Positions 248 to 9,689 of a stretch of 10,659 bases of DNA are shown here, in pieces. How positions within the stretch are numbered: the first letter of the stretch is position 1; the number at the start of each line of letters is the position of its first letter. Both the position numbers and the translations under genes were made by a program. Source of the stretch: Myxococcales bacterium (lineage in GTDB: Bacteria; Myxococcota_A; UBA9042); contig JBBISH010000170.1 of NCBI GenBank assembly GCA_037441385.1, forward strand, positions 1 through 10,659. The letters run 5' to 3'. The notes beneath the pieces were generated by a model. It had not been told where the DNA came from. It saw only the letters and a program-made list of their open reading frames with translations, and did no database searches.

Positions 248-1387
248 CTAGTTCATGCCAAGCGCAACAATTTGCTGCGCGAACAAGCGATTGGCCTCTG
301 CAGTCGGATGACCGTCGCCGACGATGTGCAGGCGCGCATCGGTGCCCCAGCCCTGCTGCGCGGGCCAGGCCACTTGCACTTGCGCCGACCGCGCACGGTC
401 GAATAGGTGCACGGGGCCGTAGTAGCTCCACACGATCAACCGAAACCCGTGCTCGCGCTGCAAGACAAGGAGTTGCTGCAGTTGCGCCTCGAACCGGCGG
501 CGAATGGCCGCGGGGATCTGGGCTTCGTCGCGCCAACGGGCCTCGTCCTCCTGCTCCAGCGGGTACAGATCTCCCTCTACGCCCAGCACCGCCGATAGCA
601 CCATGCCGCGCTCGCCCAGCTGCTCCAGGCGCTCCCAAGTATCGGCCGGGTCCAAGTCGTTGCCGGCGTTGAAGCCGACGACGACAGTGCTGGGTTTTTC
701 TGCCGGCAGCCGGCTCTGCAACATCTTGACATAGCTACCAAAACTCAAGCCGGGGAAGCCGGCGTTGACGACCCGCCACGTGCGATTCGGCGTGCGCTCG
801 GCCAGGCCGCGCGCCACCTGCTGGGCCAGGGTTTGGTCGTCGGGCACACCGCTGCCAAATACGAACGAGTCGCCCAGCAAAAGCCACGTCTCTGCAGGGC
901 CTTGCCCGGCGGTGGCGGTAGGGCGGCCCCCGTCCCGGTCGGTACAAAGCGTCACCGCCGCAGCTTGGCCGCGGCGCTCGCGATAGCAGTGGTTGGGCGC
1001 AAAGCCCGGACGCCCGGTTGGCGTGTGCAGGTACGGCGCCAAGATCCCCATCTGTGCCAAAGGCTTGCACCCCAAACTGCCGACCAGAAGCGCCATACTC
1101 GGCGCCGCCAGTGCCAGCCCCAGGAGCCAGCGGCGCTGCCGACCCGTCCAGCCCGCCTCGGGCCGCAGCAGCCACAGCAACAGGAGCGCAGAAAACCCAA
1201 GCATCGTCATCGAGTTGAACAGCACGAGCCGCAGCCGCTGCCCAGGTTGCTCCAAGCGAAGCGCGGCCATCACCACCCGCACCACCAGCGAGAGGGCCGC
1301 ATAGCCCGCCCAGGCCGCTGCCGCGCCGCGAACCCCGTTCAGCAGGATGGTCAGCCAGCGGCGGGTCGGGCGGTCGTCAGGCGTCAT
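248..1387 (-). CDS. Membrane-anchored SGNH/GDSL hydrolase-family protein (esterase/acyltransferase-like), 379 aa
   Basis: Block I LLLGDSFVFG, block II VVNAGFPG, block III GFNAGND and block V DGHP (DxH variant of DxxH) are all present in order. About three hydrophobic segments lie in the first ~105 aa. The ATG directly follows the upstream TAG (TAGATG). Confidence 0.88.
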   Translation of the reverse strand: MTPDDRPTRRWLTILLNGVRGAAAAWAGYAALSLVVRVVMAALRLEQPGQRLRLVLFNSMTMLGFSALLLLWLLRPEAGWTGRQRRWLLGLALAAPSMALLVGSLGCKPLAQMGILAPYLHTPTGRPGFAPNHCYRERRGQAAAVTLCTDRDGGRPTATAGQGPAETWLLLGDSFVFGSGVPDDQTLAQQVARGLAERTPNRTWRVVNAGFPGLSFGSYVKMLQSRLPAEKPSTVVVGFNAGNDLDPADTWERLEQLGERGMVLSAVLGVEGDLYPLEQEDEARWRDEAQIPAAIRRRFEAQLQQLLVLQREHGFRLIVWSYYGPVHLFDRARSAQVQVAWPAQQGWGTDARLHIVGDGHPTAEANRLFAQQIVALGMN

Positions 1388-1549
1388 CTAAAAAATGGTG
1401 TAGAGAAATGGGGTTGCGGCCTGTCCACCGGCCAGGAGTGCGCTCGCCAGAAGCAGCAGCACCAGCACGGGCAGAATCCACAGGGCCCGCCGCCGCCGCG
1501 CCAGACCCACCAAATCCACCGCCATATGCCGCAGGTGCCGCCACCGCAT
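1388..1549 (-). CDS. DUF5989-like small single-TM protein, 53 aa (MRWRHLRHMAVDLVGLARRRRALWILPVLVLLLLASALLAGGQAATPFLYTIF)
   Basis: Basic patch RRRR, then W-x-LP and a hydrophobic helix, then C-terminal PFLYTIF, matching the DUF5989 pattern (..RKKWWLLP..APFIYTLF) as I recall it. ATG at 1549 has GGA upstream. The longer start at 1933 runs antisense into the next gene. Confidence 0.82.
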   Translation of the reverse strand: MRWRHLRHMAVDLVGLARRRRALWILPVLVLLLLASALLAGGQAATPFLYTIF

Positions 1550-1642
1550 GGCCGTTCCATCCCGCAAGCCTTGCCGCTCGCACCCCGAGCATGCCATGCC
1601 CACCGCGTCCGCGCGAGGGCCGGGCCGCGCCATCGTCACGAG

Positions 1643-1672
1643 TTGCGAGCGGTCGCGGCATACCCGTACAAT
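1643..1672 (+). promoter_or_regulatory. Putative sigma70-type promoter for the FG-GAP lipoprotein
   Basis: TTGCGA (1643-1648), 18-bp spacer, TACAAT (1667-1672), in the divergent intergenic region. Confidence 0.5.
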
Positions 1673-1697
1673 GGGGCGTACTGATGCGGACTTGGAC

Positions 1698-1767
1698 TGC
1701 CGCACGCCCGAGCCGCCATGTCGCACGCCCGAGCCGCCAAGCCGCACGCCCGAGCCGAATTGCCGCA
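1698..1767 (+). repeat. 21-bp tandem repeat, ~3.3 copies (TGCCGCACGCCCGAGCCGCCA)
   Basis: Units at 1698-1718, 1719-1739 and 1740-1760, plus a partial unit at 1761-1767. The core CGCACGCCCGAGCCG is identical in all three full units. Confidence 0.93.
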
Positions 1768-3997
1768 TTGCGCGCAATCGACGCCCGGCCCGCGACGGCT
1801 CGCCACCGGTTCGGCCTGGTGCGCCGCGCTTGCGCTGGTTTTGGCCGCTTGCAGTTCGCCCAAAGCAGGCGACTCCGCAACCAAGGCGACCGATGCGACT
1901 GGCGCGGACGCCCAGTGGACCGACCCAATTCAAGACGCGGGCGACGCTGCGGCCGGCAAGGATGGCGATGGGCTAGACGTCGCCTGCACATGCGACGCCG
2001 CGGCGCCACCGACCGATGCCAGCTCGGCGGTTTCGGTCGATGCGACCGCTACGGAGGATGCAGGGGCAACTCCCGACAGTGGGGCAGCGGATGCGGCTCC
2101 CGACGCCGCCGTGGACGCGGGCCCGACACCGCCGCCCACCTACGCAACGGGCAAGTTCGTGGACATGTGGCCCCAGGTGGGGGTCAAGCTGCCCGTCATC
2201 GCGGCCGACAAGAGCAAGATGCTGGAAGCGTGGTCCAGCGCTGGCCTTTTTGCCGATTTGGACAAGGATGGCCTGCTCGACTACGTGGTGCTAGACGGCG
2301 ACAGCCATGCCTACTGGGGGCGGGCGCTCGCGCCGTGGAAGTGGTACGACGCGCCGCTGTTGACGAGCAAGGAGCCGGGCCTGACCTCGGTGGCCGTGAC
2401 GGACGAGGATGCCGACGGCTACCCCGAAATTCTGCTCGGCGGCGGCAAGATCTACTATCTGGTGCGCACCAAGTCCGAGACTTATGTCGATCAGGCCAAA
2501 GATCGCGGCTTCGAACTGAGCCTGCAGGCCAAGGCCCAACACATGGCGGTGGGCGATCTGGACAGCGACGGCCTGTTGGACGTGCTGGTGGCCGAGTACT
2601 CGTGCACGAACACATCGCACTTGCGCGGCTGGGTCAATCAGGGCAACCACACCTATGCCGACGAGACGGCGAGCTTGGGGGTCGGACACTTCTCGTCGTT
2701 TTGGTTCGCCCTGCCCGTCGACCTAGACGGCGACCGGCAGCTGGATGTGCTGGTGGGGCACGAGGGCTGCCAACCGGCCAAAGGCAATGTTCGGCTGCAA
2801 AATCAGGGATTGGACGCAGCGCCGCGCTACAAGTTCGCCGATCTGCCGCCGGTCTTTGTTGCGCCGTCGCCCAAGGGAGGCACGCCCATGGGCGCCACCG
2901 TGGCCGACATGAATGGCGATGGCGTCTTGGACATCGTTGCCTCGGACGTGGGCCTGCACGACCTGTACGCTTCGGGCACGACCATCGAGCAGGCCAAGAA
3001 AGACCCGTCGCTGGCGCTCAAGTACGACAACGGCGCCAATCACCTGCTGCTGGCCAAAGGCGACGGCACCTACGTCGAAAACGGCATCTTGTCTGGACTG
3101 GCCTGGGCGACCAGCCAGACCGGCCAAGCGATGACCGGCTGGTCGATGGGCGTCTTCGACTTTGACGGCGACGGCTGGCTAGACGTGTTCATTAGTAATT
3201 CAGAGAACTTCAGTGAGATGCTTCTGGCAGACGAGGGCGGGATGCGCCCGGTGCTGTTCCGCAACTGGAATGGCACGTCGTTTGCGGAGGTGAGCAGCCA
3301 GTATGGGTTGCCGGTGATGCGCTCGGGCCGGGCGCTGTCGATGGCGGATGTGGACGGCGACGGCGACCTGGACCTGTTCGCGGGCGGCCAAGGCGACCAA
3401 CCGGCGCTATACCGCAACGACCTGCAAACGCCCAACACGTGGATGCAAGTGCAGCTGCGCGGACACGCCAGCAACGTGTGGGGCATCGGCGCCCGGATCG
3501 AGCTGGTGACCGACGTGCGCACACTGGTAGCGCCGGTGACCGGCCAGGGCCCCACCCAAACCGCGAACCTGCCCACGGTGCACTTTGGCATTCCGGCCAG
3601 TTGGTCGGTGCAACAGCTGGTGGTGCACTGGCCGTCTGGCTTTGACCAAGTGCTGGTGGCGCCCGAGACCGGCAAGCTGCTCATCGTCGACGAGCCGCCG
3701 CTGGTCGGTCTGTCGGCGCGCTGGATCAACAGCGGCGAGCAGCAGGCCAAGGTGCAGGTCACGGCGCAGGCCTACACCAAGAGCGCCAAGCCGCAAACGG
3801 GCGTGGCAACCGCGATCGAGCTGGCACCGGGGGCCAAGGGCAGTTGGGCAGGGCCAGTTACCTGCGATCCCAGCGGCCTGTGCATGCGCACCTGGACGCC
3901 CCCCAAGGGCGGCTGGGGCACGGATCGCATCGTGGTGACGTTGGGTGGCACGCCGCTGAGCGTCCGCCCCGCCATCCGCTACGACAAGTTGTTCTGA
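1718..3997 (+). CDS. FG-GAP/VCBS-repeat, ASPIC/UnbV-domain (CRTAC1-family-like) lipoprotein
   Basis: Lipobox LVLAA-C (Cys codon 1850-1852), then an Asp/Ala/Pro-rich linker. Seven Ca-binding DxDxDG-type motifs (DLDKDG, DEDADG, DLDSDG, DLDGDR, DMNGDG, DFDGDG, DVDGDG). ASPIC/UnbV signature LRG..SN..GIGARI..VHFG..V.WPSG. Start uncertain (ATG 1718 or TTG 1760). Confidence 0.9.
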   Translation: MSHARAAKPHARAELPHCAQSTPGPRRLATGSAWCAALALVLAACSSPKAGDSATKATDATGADAQWTDPIQDAGDAAAGKDGDGLDVACTCDAAAPPTDASSAVSVDATATEDAGATPDSGAADAAPDAAVDAGPTPPPTYATGKFVDMWPQVGVKLPVIAADKSKMLEAWSSAGLFADLDKDGLLDYVVLDGDSHAYWGRALAPWKWYDAPLLTSKEPGLTSVAVTDEDADGYPEILLGGGKIYYLVRTKSETYVDQAKDRGFELSLQAKAQHMAVGDLDSDGLLDVLVAEYSCTNTSHLRGWVNQGNHTYADETASLGVGHFSSFWFALPVDLDGDRQLDVLVGHEGCQPAKGNVRLQNQGLDAAPRYKFADLPPVFVAPSPKGGTPMGATVADMNGDGVLDIVASDVGLHDLYASGTTIEQAKKDPSLALKYDNGANHLLLAKGDGTYVENGILSGLAWATSQTGQAMTGWSMGVFDFDGDGWLDVFISNSENFSEMLLADEGGMRPVLFRNWNGTSFAEVSSQYGLPVMRSGRALSMADVDGDGDLDLFAGGQGDQPALYRNDLQTPNTWMQVQLRGHASNVWGIGARIELVTDVRTLVAPVTGQGPTQTANLPTVHFGIPASWSVQQLVVHWPSGFDQVLVAPETGKLLIVDEPPLVGLSARWINSGEQQAKVQVTAQAYTKSAKPQTGVATAIELAPGAKGSWAGPVTCDPSGLCMRTWTPPKGGWGTDRIVVTLGGTPLSVRPAIRYDKLF

Positions 3998-6232: not shown

Positions 6233-7504
6233 ATGGCCTGTTTGCGACCGTCGAGCCTGTTCATGCACCGGCCTACGCCGAACGCAACGGTCAACCTGGC
6301 GCGCGGCATGAAACAGGGCCACCAAATGGCCTGGCACAGCGAAGGCCTGGAGGCCGGCGAAGCATTGTTGCGCGAGATCGCCAACGCACGCCGCTCGATC
6401 GACGTCCAGTTGTACATCTTGGAAGCCGACACCGTCAGCCAGACCGTGGTGGCGGCGCTCGTTCAGGCCTGCCAACGCCAGGTACGGGTGCGTCTTTTGC
6501 TGGACGGCCTGGGCTGCAGCGACGCCGATGCCGCGCATCTGGAGCAACTGACCGCGGCCGGCGCGGCGGTGCGCGTCTACCGGCCCCTGCGGTTCAGCTT
6601 GCCGTGGCGCCACTTGCTGCGGCGCAACCATCGCAAAATCTTCGTGTTTGACGGCGAGAGCGCCATCCTGACGGGCCGCAACGTGGGCGGCCACTACCTG
6701 GCCGTTGCGCCGGACCACCCAACCTGGCTGGACTTGGGCGCCGTGGTGCGCGGCCCCGTGGTGTCGACCCTGGCGCGGCAGCTGAACCACGACTGGCGGG
6801 CGGCCGAGCGCAAGTACCGCCTGCACAAGTGGCTGCGCTGGCTGGATCCGTTGGCCCCCAGTGCCGATCTGTTGGCCGCCGAACGCGCCAGTCGAGCAGC
6901 GGCGCGTGCCAATTGGCCAGCGATCCCGCGGAACAAGCCGGGACGCGGCGGCCTGAAAGTGGGCGCGGCGCTCAGCGTGGGCAAGGCTTCGGCAAATCCG
7001 ATAGCAGATCGGTACTTGCAGGCCATCCAGAGCGCGCGCACGTCGATCTGGCTGGTCCACGCCTACTTCTTGCCGGATCACCGGCTGGCGCGGGCGCTGG
7101 TGGCCGCCGCGCGGCGCGGTGTGCAAGTACGGGTCCTTCTTCCCGATTTGCGCACGACCGACGTCAAGCTGGTGGCCCTGGCGTCGCTGCACGGGCTGAG
7201 GCAGTTGATGAAGGCGGGGGTGCAGGTGCGCCTGTTGTGCACCAACAACCTGCACGCCAAGTTCGCCGTGGTCGACGATGTGTGGTGGACGATGGGCTCG
7301 GCCAACTTGGACGCCCTGTCGCGCAAGCGCAATCTAGAAGCCAACTTGGCGGGCTATGGGCGCGAGCCGGGCCTGCGCCTGGCCGGGTTGGCACACGACT
7401 GGTTCGAGCTGGCACAGCCTTGGGATGCGGTCGAGGCAAAGCGGCAGCCGCGGTGGCTGCGCTGGCTGGGGCAAGTGGCATGGCGGTTCCGCGCGTTACT
7501 CTAG
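6233..7504 (+). CDS. Phospholipase D family protein, cardiolipin synthase ClsB-like (no N-terminal TM anchor)
   Basis: Two HKD motifs, RRNHRKIFVFDG and LHAKFAVVDD..GSANLD. Cls hallmarks VRLLLDGLG, W.D, AYFLP, AARRGVQVRVLLP, NLEAN. The track start at 6083 overlaps the SPFH gene, so the real start is probably ATG 6233 (alternatives 6263, 6308). Confidence 0.9.
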   Translation: MACLRPSSLFMHRPTPNATVNLARGMKQGHQMAWHSEGLEAGEALLREIANARRSIDVQLYILEADTVSQTVVAALVQACQRQVRVRLLLDGLGCSDADAAHLEQLTAAGAAVRVYRPLRFSLPWRHLLRRNHRKIFVFDGESAILTGRNVGGHYLAVAPDHPTWLDLGAVVRGPVVSTLARQLNHDWRAAERKYRLHKWLRWLDPLAPSADLLAAERASRAAARANWPAIPRNKPGRGGLKVGAALSVGKASANPIADRYLQAIQSARTSIWLVHAYFLPDHRLARALVAAARRGVQVRVLLPDLRTTDVKLVALASLHGLRQLMKAGVQVRLLCTNNLHAKFAVVDDVWWTMGSANLDALSRKRNLEANLAGYGREPGLRLAGLAHDWFELAQPWDAVEAKRQPRWLRWLGQVAWRFRALL

Positions 7505-8002
7505 TGAATCCGCAAGAATTCGTGCTCCGCGTTTGGGCTGCGGCAAGACGGGCGGCGGCCGGCGCACCTTGGCAAACCGCGAGCAGATCAGGGCATCGCG
7601 GAGCGCGGCGTGCCCCAGCGGCACTTTGCCGTGCGGCAGCGCCGTATGCACAAACAGCAGTTGCGCTTTGCAGAATTGGCGGTAGGGCAGAGCCCCTTCC
7701 GGGTCTTCGCCCACCGGCGTCGCGCCATCTTCGCGCAGACGCTGCAGCAGGATCTGGTTCAGCTTCTCGGGCGCGCCGCGCGTGTACCACGACCACAAGC
7801 GCTTGCCCACTTGGCCTGCCCAGCTGCGAAACAGCGGGACATCGCCGTACAAAGCATCGAATAGATAGGCGTCGTCGATCGGGATGCCGCCCACAGTCAA
7901 TACGCGCGCCGCCACCCGATAGCCACCCGAATGCGCCGACACCGCCACCTGTTGCCAGGTTTGGCGCGCGCTCAACGCCTGCCGGCCCAGCACGCCGCGC
8001 AC
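7496..8002 (-). CDS. C-terminal half of alpha/beta-hydrolase-like protein (nucleophile elbow SAHSGGY)
   Basis: VAVSAHSGGYR (GxSxG variant), YLFDALYG, and a candidate catalytic His in LPHGKVP. GTG start has GGAG 7 nt upstream. The TAA stop overlaps the cls 3' end by 9 bp. Confidence 0.7.
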   Translation of the reverse strand: MRGVLGRQALSARQTWQQVAVSAHSGGYRVAARVLTVGGIPIDDAYLFDALYGDVPLFRSWAGQVGKRLWSWYTRGAPEKLNQILLQRLREDGATPVGEDPEGALPYRQFCKAQLLFVHTALPHGKVPLGHAALRDALICSRFAKVRRPPPVLPQPKRGARILADSLE

Positions 8003-8020
8003 CTTGCGGCTCCGCCTTCA

Positions 8021-8491
8021 TCACAATAGCTCGTTGGCGAATCGGCTGAACCCTTGCGGCTCTTCCAGCTTGCCGCCCGACGAATCCGGGGCATCCACGG
8101 GCCCTTGAGGCACCGCCAGGATCACATTGCGCCCGGCGGCCACCACTTGCTCGCGGAGCTGGTGGTCGTCGATCTTGCGCACCGCCCGGCCGTCGTGGCC
8201 GTGGAAATGGACCAAAAGTCCGATCGGTCGCTTGGGATCGAAGTCCCTGGAAATGAACAGCAGCGTCGTAGGGTCGGTCCACGGCTTGCCTGGGCAAGGG
8301 AAGGGACCGTGGCGCAACTGCAGCGTGAGCGTTACGCCCAAGGGCGAGCGCACCGCCCGAGCCAGCCCTCCCACGGCGTTGGGATCAGCGAGCAGCGTCG
8401 ACTCGCCGGGCAGGGCCACCGCGGTCGCTGGCTCTGCAAGCTCGGTGGGCGCCAGCAGCGCCAACCACAGCACAAACGCAAGCCCGGCCAT
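8021..8491 (-). CDS. N-terminal half of secreted alpha/beta-hydrolase-like protein
   Basis: Signal-peptide-like MAGLAFVLWLALLAP, oxyanion-strand motif LLVHFHGH, and NVILAVPQGP..DSSGGKL. Starts 3 nt after the upstream stop. Confidence 0.72.
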   Translation of the reverse strand: MAGLAFVLWLALLAPTELAEPATAVALPGESTLLADPNAVGGLARAVRSPLGVTLTLQLRHGPFPCPGKPWTDPTTLLFISRDFDPKRPIGLLVHFHGHDGRAVRKIDDHQLREQVVAAGRNVILAVPQGPVDAPDSSGGKLEEPQGFSRFANELL

Positions 8492-8494
8492 CGG

Positions 8495-9154
8495 CTAGCG
8501 GCGCCCTGCGCGGCGGATCACCTGCACGATGTGCCGCGCTCGCCAAGCCTGGTGCTCGCTCCAGCCGGTCAGATGCTCGGCGAGCAGCGCCTCCATGGGC
8601 CGCACACAGCGCCCATCGCCCACCTGCTCCAGCGCCTGCAGCGCCCCGTCGATTTGCTCGGCCGCGGCCGCGCGCTGCACCAGACGATGGAGGGCGGCCA
8701 CCAGCCCCTCCTGCAGGTGCCCCAGCCCGGCCGCCGGCACGACCCGGCAGGCCAAGCCAAGCAACTCGGCTCGCTCACTCAGCAAAGACCGCTGAACCAG
8801 TTCGGCCAAGTGGCCCCGCTCGGTGAGGTGCCCGGCCGGCAGAGTGACCAGCGCGCGCAGAGCCCAACAGGCGGCTGCCTCGTCCAGATCCGCAACGAGC
8901 GCCTCCGCCTGGTGGTCCAGCAAGATGCCAACCTGATCACCGGCCTCGCCCCACTGGTCTGCCTGCCACCAACGCTCCTCGCTCGCCGGGCGCAGCGGCT
9001 GCGGAGCCTGGGGCGGCGCAAGGTCCTCGTCCAAGAAATCCATGTCGTCGGCCAGGCTTGGCGGGCCTGACTGGCTCGCGCTCGCGTGCGCACCTGCCAC
9101 CAGCCAGGTCCACAGCTCGTCGCCATCTTGGCGCGCAGTTGGTTCGTGCTGCAT
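8495..9154 (-). CDS. Hypothetical protein (~219 aa), alpha-helical C-terminus with a possible HEAT-like repeat
   Basis: Fills the gap between flanking genes and stops 3 nt before the next minus-strand ATG. Leu/Ala/Glu-rich helices include ALQALEQVGDGRCVRPMEALL. ATG 9154 has a purine-rich GGACAGGG upstream (alternative ATG 9172). The track start at 9301 overlaps the kal start. Confidence 0.7.
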   Translation of the reverse strand: MQHEPTARQDGDELWTWLVAGAHASASQSGPPSLADDMDFLDEDLAPPQAPQPLRPASEERWWQADQWGEAGDQVGILLDHQAEALVADLDEAAACWALRALVTLPAGHLTERGHLAELVQRSLLSERAELLGLACRVVPAAGLGHLQEGLVAALHRLVQRAAAAEQIDGALQALEQVGDGRCVRPMEALLAEHLTGWSEHQAWRARHIVQVIRRAGRR

Positions 9155-9299
9155 CGTCGGCCCTGTCCACATGGCACGGGGTGTTGCCCCGCGCTCGCCA
9201 AAGTAGTACATCCAGCCCGACTTCGGGCCCCACGAATTGCCGGGGCTTTCGATCCAGTCCCACAGAATCCGGACGAGCCGCCACCGCTGGAGGTGTACC

Positions 9300-9689
9300 A
9301 TGAAAGCGATGATTCGACTGCGCCTGTCGTCCCACGACGCACATTATGGCGGCGGTTTGGTCGACGGCGCGCGCATGCTCGGCCTGTTTGGCGACGTGGC
9401 CACCGAGCTGCTGATCCGCCACGACGGCGACGAAGGCCTGTTCCGCGCCTACGAAAACGTGGAATTTCTGGCCCCAGTCTATGCCGGCGACTTCGTCGAG
9501 GCCGAAGGCGAGATCGTCTCGACCGGCAACACCAGCCGCCGCATGCATTTCGAAGCGCGCAAGGTCATCAGCCCGCGCCCCGATCTCAACGACTCGGCGG
9601 CGGACTTGCTCGAGACCCCGGTGGTGGTGTGCCGCGCTACGGGCACTTGTGTCGTAACCGCCGATCGCCAGCGCGGCCGCGGCGGCTGA
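9300..9689 (+). CDS. kal: 3-aminobutyryl-CoA ammonia-lyase (hotdog fold), 129 aa
   Basis: Recognisable Kal sequence: [54 protein letters not shown]...GNTSR.M.FEARKVI. Strong RBS GGAGGT at 9289-9294. Adjacent to kce. Confidence 0.93.

Follow-up and report, generated by a model that had tools for sequence, protein, structure and literature searches.

What a membrane microprotein of 53 amino acids might do for the SGNH-type protein whose gene begins exactly where its own gene ends is the question raised by a 10,659-nucleotide stretch of DNA (hereafter, the window), which is the entire contig C170 (JBBISH010000170.1) of the 6.6-Mb, 221-contig assembly GCA_037441385.1 of a Myxococcales bacterium. 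The peptide gene occupies positions 1388..1549 of the minus strand (ATG at 1549, TAG at 1390-1388), and the gene of a 379-amino-acid, membrane-anchored protein follows on the same strand at 248..1387, the stop codon of the former abutting the start codon of the latter (junction at 1385..1390; ATG at 1387-1385, zero spacer). The initial annotation of this DNA described the peptide as having a basic N-terminal side, one membrane helix and the C-terminal sequence FLYTIF, read the pair as a DltX-like acyl shuttle joined to an SGNH transferase and loaded in trans, and saw no membrane-bound O-acyltransferase (MBOAT) in the window. The minus-strand open reading frame (ORF) confirms this description of the peptide, including the codon of the motif tyrosine (Tyr50, four residues from the C-terminus; 1400..1402, running 1402-1400 on the minus strand), and the TAG-ATG junction and the SGNH protein with its intact blocks are borne out by ORFs, homologues and a structural model; in a Pfam scan of 10 window ORFs, the peptide and the SGNH protein among them, no MBOAT was found. 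The interpretation finds partial support, once the MBOAT is replaced as donor by a carbamoyltransferase (CT). The peptide is a member of the DUF5989 (SxtK-type) family, which is gene-linked across phyla to a NodU/CmcH-type CT, a small SxtJ-like protein and SGNH proteins, and we consider it an evenly balanced proposition that the peptide and the SGNH protein form the outer half of a split, MBOAT-free relay in which a carbamoyl group travels on a tyrosine.

The peptide consists of a basic amphipathic N-terminal side, a single hydrophobic membrane helix and the tail GQAATPFLYTIF, which ends in FLYTIF. It matches the Pfam family DUF5989 (PF19451) with 39.7 bits against a cut-off of 27 (E 5e-10), as the initial annotation had surmised, and the match spans residues 10-53 of the peptide and positions 4-49 of the 49-position profile. 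Thus, the architecture typical of DUF5989, namely, about 50 amino acids with a basic amphipathic N-terminal side, one helix and a C-terminal PFxYTxF, is present in the window peptide, which is a divergent member of the family (24-42% identity to canonical copies) and can be aligned with 15 copies from related genomes. The ORF and its motif are more than a chance occurrence because, among the 90,298 ORFs of at least 35 amino acids in a six-frame translation of the same genome, just 5 end in F.Y..F, and three of these are the MBOATs of the genome and one is the peptide. Furthermore, synonymous codon differences outnumber non-synonymous ones in comparisons of the peptide gene with its counterparts in two congeneric genomes (22 versus 2 for G007, 16 versus 8 for G005), so that the gene is under purifying selection.

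The initial annotation had staked its reading on the conservation of the tyrosine in homologues. PF19451 matches are found in 49 of the 61 genomes of relatives, the own genome counted; 60 DUF5989 loci of relatives were retrieved and, together with the window, yielded 61 copies that were scored with a custom profile hidden Markov model (HMM). Tyrosine occupies the position four residues from the end in 56 of these 61 copies, the five remaining ones being low-scoring or atypical matches; 52 end in hydrophobic-x-Tyr-x-x-hydrophobic and 42 in strict FxYxxF. On a much larger scale, a profile search of 1.84 billion representatives retrieved DUF5989 in 5,842 representative clusters (50% identity) at E<=0.001, and among the best 150 of these 5,842, FxYxxF forms the C-terminal end in 131, whereas in the remaining 19 the motif is followed by an unconserved extension, which we read as the product of miscalled stop codons. 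The family is nearly identical, including the N-terminal LWxFLKxRKKWWLxP, across Cyanobacteria, Bacteroidota, Proteobacteria, Omnitrophota, Planctomycetota and others; this N-terminal segment lies outside the part selected by the pattern used in our search for tail-encoding DNA, described below. A literature search found no paper that mentions DUF5989. In one relative (genome G057; L052:5005-6129, plus strand), a 374-amino-acid protein that ends in PPLLYILQ combines an MprF-type membrane domain (LPG_synthase_TM) with a DUF5989 match at its C-terminus.

The genomic neighborhoods of the family point to partners of a definite kind. In the related genomes, the gene directly beside DUF5989 usually encodes a CT with both Carbam_trans domains, and next to this CT, there is a gene for a membrane protein of three helices, with DPL...SYW as a conserved segment at the C-terminus, which we call SxtJ-like. 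These proteins have no match in Pfam or NCBIfam, and were identified with a custom HMM built from three seeds and iterated once. A CT gene, an SxtJ-like gene or both are present in 34 of the 60 relatives' loci. To sample other phyla, one genome per species was scanned for DNA encoding APFIYTLF followed by a stop codon, which yielded at least 120 stretches; 80 of these, from many phyla, had 8-kb flanks and are the basis of all counts out of 80 given here, and, given that the scan selects APFIYTLF endings, they are uninformative on the conservation of the tail itself. A DUF5989 gene is present in all 80 loci; 71 also have a CT gene within 8 kb, and 70 an SxtJ-like gene, in accord with the neighbors that the initial annotation had named for the family. 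The co-occurrence with SGNH proteins recurs in several independent architectures: an SGNH-type gene (Pfam, E<=0.001) lies within 8 kb in 40 of the 80 loci. Of the 67 ORFs considered as SGNH candidates, 47 were confirmed by Pfam and 20 had no SGNH-type Pfam match; jackhmmer on its own would give 49 of the 80 loci, a figure that we do not count. The nearest same-strand neighbor of the peptide gene, with distances taken to the SGNH domain match, is an SGNH domain in 20 of the 80 loci (13 downstream, 7 upstream), and the order CT, SxtJ-like, peptide, SGNH is found in at least 11. Some of the peptide-adjacent SGNH-like ORFs of other phyla also carry TPR or F5/8-type-C domains. In four loci from one genus of relatives (L084, L087, L089 and L093), a canonical DUF5989 gene is found between panB-panC and the gene of an 844-884-amino-acid protein without a Pfam family, and there is no CT or SxtJ-like gene within 7 kb.

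The same four parts can be recognized in the saxitoxin biosynthesis clusters. SxtK is probably a DUF5989 protein, which fits the gene order and sizes. In these clusters, sxtI, sxtJ (405 nucleotides), sxtK (165 nucleotides) and sxtL (encoding a GDSL protein) are arranged in this order (PMC2679770, PMC2885083), and sxtK is described as an ORF of 54 codons (PMC2679770). The correspondence extends to gene sizes and to the order, with a CT first, then a small membrane protein, the 54-codon ORF and a GDSL protein. The saxitoxin segment differs from the genome studied here in that the four parts are distributed over two contigs in the latter, with no toxin pathway genes in view. SxtJ and SxtK were listed as proteins of unknown function in the 2009 and 2010 papers (PMC2679770, PMC2885083), and SxtL has been suggested to be a decarbamoylase, cleaving a carbamoyl group (PMC2885083).

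The protein encoded next to the window peptide matches Lipase_GDSL_2 with 26.9 bits, which is below the cut-off of 32.9, and over the first half of the profile only. Nevertheless, by its sequence and its predicted structure, it is most readily classified as an SGNH-domain protein because the blocks are invariant, the model is confident and the matches are to solved SGNH enzymes. In alignments with 10 and with 11 homologues, G172-D173-S174, G213, N243-D244 and H360 are invariant, and both glycines of block II (G210 and G213) are kept. The predicted nucleophile Ser174 of the GDS block is encoded at 866..868, Asn243 of block III (GxND) at 659..661 and His360 at 308..310, all on the minus strand; block V reads G357-D358-G359-H360, also invariant, and in the subfamily of this protein, the Asp precedes the His by two residues instead of three. 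An AlphaFold2 model of the 379-amino-acid protein has a mean predicted local distance difference test score (pLDDT) of 91 and a predicted template modeling score (pTM) of 0.87, and a Foldseek search with this model yielded 46 matches in the Protein Data Bank (PDB) at E<=0.001, almost all to SGNH enzymes. In VIA-align comparisons, the best match is CgnD (PDB 8a2n; Z 17.2, root-mean-square deviation 4.1 over 214 residues), with the next best at 14.1; many GDSL esterases have Z of 12-14, and the PatB and OatA domains, at 10.8-12.5, are on the level of the esterases.

CgnD is a hydrolase with an SGNH fold from a myxobacterium, where it takes part in crocagin biosynthesis and is encoded in a cluster with a carbamoyltransferase (PMC10070186); it slowly cleaves the crocagin precursor, which has the C-terminal core Ile-Tyr-Trp, and was purified in detergent-free buffer (PMC10070186). 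As the closest solved structure, it resembles the window SGNH domain also in the beta-rich stretch before block I, and it has in common with the proposed pair that the substrate peptide has a tyrosine-containing core at the C-terminus. The differences are that it shares 18% identity with the window protein, is a slow protease and has no DUF5989 partner reported.

The SGNH domain is preceded by a membrane domain of three hydrophobic helices (residues 1-107, encoded at 1067..1387, minus strand; hydropathy and model), which the model places at residues 6-44, 48-73 and 82-104. The possibility that this domain is itself SxtJ-like was considered and rejected: the custom SxtJ HMM matches contig C4 only in this genome. 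Two cysteines of the ectodomain, C134 and C148, are invariant among the homologues. The protein is rare: of the 8,000 candidates scored in a word-seeded search of a collection of 5.8 billion clusters, 9 reached E<=0.001, 7 of them full-length relatives, and the close homologues bear the NCBI names of metagenome-assembled genomes (MAGs) of Deltaproteobacteria or Myxococcales. Its own genome contains 4 Lipase_GDSL_2 matches in 6.6 Mb. The relationship to the peptide-adjacent SGNH proteins of other phyla can be traced by hhalign (probability 99.3%, E 2.9e-20, 110 columns), in a region that comprises blocks I-III and the stretch before block I.

The pairing of peptide and SGNH genes is best examined within the genus. 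The TAG-ATG junction is identical in the own genome (G000) and in the congeners G005 and G007, with the junction being kept while the SGNH proteins themselves are merely 65-82% identical; the corresponding SxtK-type gene and SGNH gene of other phyla are separated by spacers of about 4-6 nucleotides. Because the stop codon of the peptide gene abuts the SGNH start codon, the two genes are likely to be translationally coupled. In the own genome, the window copy is the sole DUF5989 gene, and there is one full CT gene, on contig C4 (C4:63989-about 65840), with an SxtJ-like gene directly upstream (C4:65824-66270). Hence the 10.7-kb contig lacks the adjacent CT and SxtJ-like genes that form the usual context of DUF5989, and all four parts are present in the genome, split over C170 and C4. 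The same arrangement is observed in G005 and G007, where SxtJ-CT and peptide-SGNH are on different contigs and the sole DUF5989 copy precedes the SGNH gene. No DUF5989 gene or remnant was found after the CT gene in any of these three genomes; in the own genome, a convergent gene ends there. Conversely, in the congener G003, the SxtJ-like, CT and peptide genes form a row, and there is no homologue of the window SGNH protein. The own CT is 93% identical to that of G007, 86% to that of G005 and 68% to the peptide-linked CT of G003, and by these identities, it belongs to the peptide-linked clade.

Thus, a single genus shows two placements of the peptide gene: downstream of the CT gene or immediately ahead of the SGNH gene, stop codon against start codon. 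Where the module is split, the peptide gene remains joined to the SGNH gene and is parted from the CT gene, which suggests that the closest partner of the peptide is the SGNH enzyme. None of the 80 cross-phyla loci shows the split form; it recurs in G010 (L043), with a different, one-helix SGNH protein. The gene that follows the peptide-SGNH pair in G010 (L043:7308-9476, plus strand) encodes a protein of 722 amino acids that lacks a family assignment and has about ten hydrophobic helices, and is followed by a di-haem peroxidase-like gene.

Natural gene fusions allow the membrane topology of the parts to be deduced. CT and SxtJ-like domains are fused, CT first, in 5 ORFs (L068, L073, L077 and L094 from relatives, and L177), an arrangement that would tether the soluble CT to the membrane. 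In L041 and L053, a CT is followed by exactly one strong hydrophobic helix (residues 598-616) and an SGNH domain, and a DUF5989 gene follows each of these fusions; with a single helix between them, the CT lies across the membrane from the SGNH domain. A Planctomycetota MAG (L125:2806-4377, minus strand; JBLINP010000039.1) contains a single 523-amino-acid ORF in which an SGNH protein is fused to DUF5989, in the order N-terminal helix, SGNH domain, three helices, the amphipathic segment of DUF5989, its helix and the tail APFIYTLF. Four helices, an even number, separate the SGNH domain from the tail, so that both should face the same side. A CT of this family requires ATP and carbamoyl phosphate, which places it in the cytoplasm. 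The SGNH domains and the tyrosine tail, being on the same side as each other and opposite to the CT, would therefore be outside. We infer the same location for the window pair by extension from the fusion proteins; the window SGNH domain is preceded by an odd number of helices (three). For the initial annotation, to which a peptide C-terminus across the membrane from the SGNH domain would have been fatal, the fusions thus speak in favor.

How far does the resemblance to known acyl shuttles reach? In the acyl-shuttle motif FXYXXF, which is found in DltX and at the C-terminus of PatA (JBC 2025, PMC12148441), the invariant tyrosine is acylated by the MBOAT and then passes the group on to the serine of the SGNH partner (PMC12148441). 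Like DltX, the window peptide is a membrane microprotein of about 50 residues with one helix, a C-terminal FxYxxF with an invariant tyrosine and a tail predicted to face outward, and it is encoded beside an SGNH-type partner, the place taken by DltD in the Dlt system. Unlike the Dlt system of teichoic acid D-alanylation, with its MBOAT DltB, carrier DltC and ligase DltA, none of which is encoded in the window, the DUF5989 family is linked to an ATP-dependent CT and an SxtJ-like protein as the donor, so that the group transferred would be carbamoyl and not D-alanyl. Pairs of the PatA/PatB type likewise have a hexapeptide motif that feeds the serine of an SGNH enzyme; there, however, the motif is the end of the MBOAT, whereas here, it belongs to a free-standing microprotein, and the genes to which DUF5989 is linked are those of CT and SxtJ-like proteins rather than of MBOATs. 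The peptide is therefore, at most, DltX-like in the way it works, not a member of the DltX family.

A search of the genome for an MBOAT without a terminal motif of its own, which could have loaded the peptide in trans as the initial annotation envisaged, found none: the three MBOATs, on contigs C3, C104 and C60, all end in FIYFQF. The MBOAT gene on C3 is followed by a DUF459/SGNH gene, that on C104 by an ORF with a GDSL match, and that on C60 lies between a carrier-protein gene upstream and a weakly DUF1574-like gene. Loading in trans itself retains candidates, namely, the SxtJ-like protein and the CT encoded on C4. As an aside, the C60 locus (27835-32294, minus strand) forms a Dlt-like row of a PP-binding carrier gene, the FIYFQF MBOAT and the weakly DUF1574-like gene in a genome of the Gram-negative type; the row continues with a 562-amino-acid ORF, the end of which looks adenylate-forming by reading alone.

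In the relay that we propose, the cytoplasmic CT would make an activated carbamoyl group from carbamoyl phosphate and ATP, a reaction established for the TobZ/NodU family. With SxtJ in the place of the MBOAT, the CT would attach this group to Tyr50 of the peptide in O-carbamoyl ester linkage; outside the cytoplasmic membrane, the tail would then swing to Ser174 of the SGNH domain, and the SGNH enzyme would hand the carbamoyl group to a hydroxyl of some envelope acceptor. The step from tyrosine to serine is plausible because aryl carbamates carbamoylate serine hydrolases. Loading, and with it the passage of the group across the membrane, is the weak point. In a broader form, on which we are more tentative and which we put at somewhat short of even, DUF5989/SxtK in general would be the carrier of an MBOAT-independent, membrane-crossing route for a one-carbon acyl group, with the CT docked on SxtJ and outward-facing SGNH enzymes carbamoylating envelope polymers.

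Several observations weigh against such a relay. A literature search retrieved no report of carbamoyl-tyrosine, and no paper that links a carbamoyltransferase to an acyl-shuttle motif. The DltX-likeness on which the initial annotation was built fails as homology: the peptide has no DltX match in Pfam at E up to 10, and a search of its profile against solved chains found none, DltX and MBOATs included. The fold of the SGNH protein matches hydrolases and transferases alike, the best match being the slow hydrolase CgnD, and the fold searches did not separate the two activities. Among the 60 DUF5989 loci of relatives, 26 lack both CT and SxtJ-like genes in the fetched stretch; some of these are on short contigs and eight are atypical matches, the others being true orphans, and because the peptide can be encoded far from its partners, adjacency alone is weak evidence. 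Five distant full-length homologues of the SGNH protein (33-44% identity, in five genomes) have no DUF5989 gene upstream, so that the exact pairing is confined to one subclade of the genus. With regard to topology, the positive-inside count of the three-helix anchor is not decisive, and the predicted fold of the L125 fusion has a mean pLDDT of 78, with just 56-68 for the tail and no contact read-out. Finally, the fusions place the CT and the tyrosine tail on opposite sides of the membrane, which calls for a conduit, and SxtJ is a hypothetical one at most.

Other explanations are to be considered. It is conceivable, although we regard it as unlikely, that the peptide is a non-covalent subunit or anchor of CT-SxtJ, with the tail as a binding element, and that the SGNH protein does no more than hydrolyze, for instance as a decarbamoylase or esterase, and so edits or removes the modification. 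CTs of the NodU/CmcH/TobZ type carbamoylate their final substrates directly in the cytoplasm, which is compatible with such an arrangement, as is the lack of any carbamoyl-tyrosine report in the literature that we found. The prevalence of esterases among the nearest solved folds, with the hydrolase CgnD at the top, and the proposed cleavage of a carbamoyl group by SxtL (PMC2885083) point in the same direction. A mere anchor, however, would have no need of a tyrosine that thousands of clusters keep invariant at exactly four residues from a free C-terminus, and the same motif is a proven covalent carrier that feeds SGNH enzymes (PMC12148441); moreover, upon the split of the module, the peptide is retained beside the SGNH gene rather than the CT gene, and the SGNH-peptide fusion exists. 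The adjacency could also be incidental, with an orphan DUF5989 copy having landed upstream of an unrelated SGNH gene, as might be suspected from how common orphan copies are (the 26 of 60 loci above) and from the more distant SGNH homologues without the peptide; this we consider improbable, given that the zero-spacer junction is kept in three genomes notwithstanding the divergence of the SGNH proteins, that peptide and SGNH are also brought together in 20 of the 80 loci from other phyla and in a fusion, and that G010 pairs the peptide with a different SGNH protein.

Two further explanations appear even less probable. That an MBOAT encoded elsewhere loads the peptide with an acyl group such as acetyl, as DltB loads DltX, would suit a motif that is that of MBOAT systems (PMC12148441) and a genome with three MBOATs; we deem this very improbable, considering that each of the three has its own FIYFQF and its own partner gene, and that the family is linked to CT and SxtJ across the 80 loci (which were not scanned for MBOATs). 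Hardly to be entertained is the possibility that the peptide is a ribosomal natural product precursor, with the tyrosine-containing C-terminus processed by the SGNH protein after the model of CgnD. CgnD being the closest solved structure by a clear step in Z (17.2 versus 14.1) and coming from a cluster with a carbamoyltransferase (PMC10070186) are what commends it. The peptide, however, contains a membrane helix, its family is almost unchanged from Cyanobacteria to Bacteroidota, unlike precursor peptides, and there is no crocagin-type partner protein among the Pfam matches of the window.

Should the carbamoyl-tyrosine relay be real, it would make SxtJ, SxtK and SxtL, which have been unexplained since the saxitoxin cluster was described, parts of one relay, and would give a function to DUF5989, a large family without a known one. 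To our knowledge, MBOATs and AT3 proteins are the only donors described so far for acyl-tyrosine shuttles, and a CT-fed shuttle would add both a new class of donor and a new group. It would also explain the O-carbamoylation of molecules outside the cytoplasm. The split found in this genus amounts to a natural experiment, and the resulting two-gene unit is easy to test.

The remainder of the window provides the setting of this unit. Upstream of the peptide gene, a divergent intergenic region (1550..1717) separates it from an FG-GAP/ASPIC lipoprotein-like gene (1718-3997, plus strand; Pfam), which is the divergent neighbor of the pair in G005 and G007 as well. This region presumably holds the promoter of the peptide-SGNH two-gene unit; a consensus scan detected no minus-strand promoter or terminator, and an Rfam scan gave no match. 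The further genes of the window encode, according to Pfam, a Band-7 protein, a PLD-type cardiolipin-synthase-like protein, a 4HBT thioesterase and a BKACE enzyme. Three ORFs remain without a family; they are consecutive (7496-9301, minus strand), encode 168, 156 and 268 amino acids, and have no Pfam match at E<=0.01. At the other end of the window, just past the stop codon of the SGNH gene, there are two copies, 87% alike, of a 108-nucleotide element (1-108 and 136-243) that has no Rfam match. At least 41 copies of this element, with 87-100% identity, are present in the genome (359 first-look candidates), several of them at contig ends, and the element probably breaks the assembly at the end of the window.

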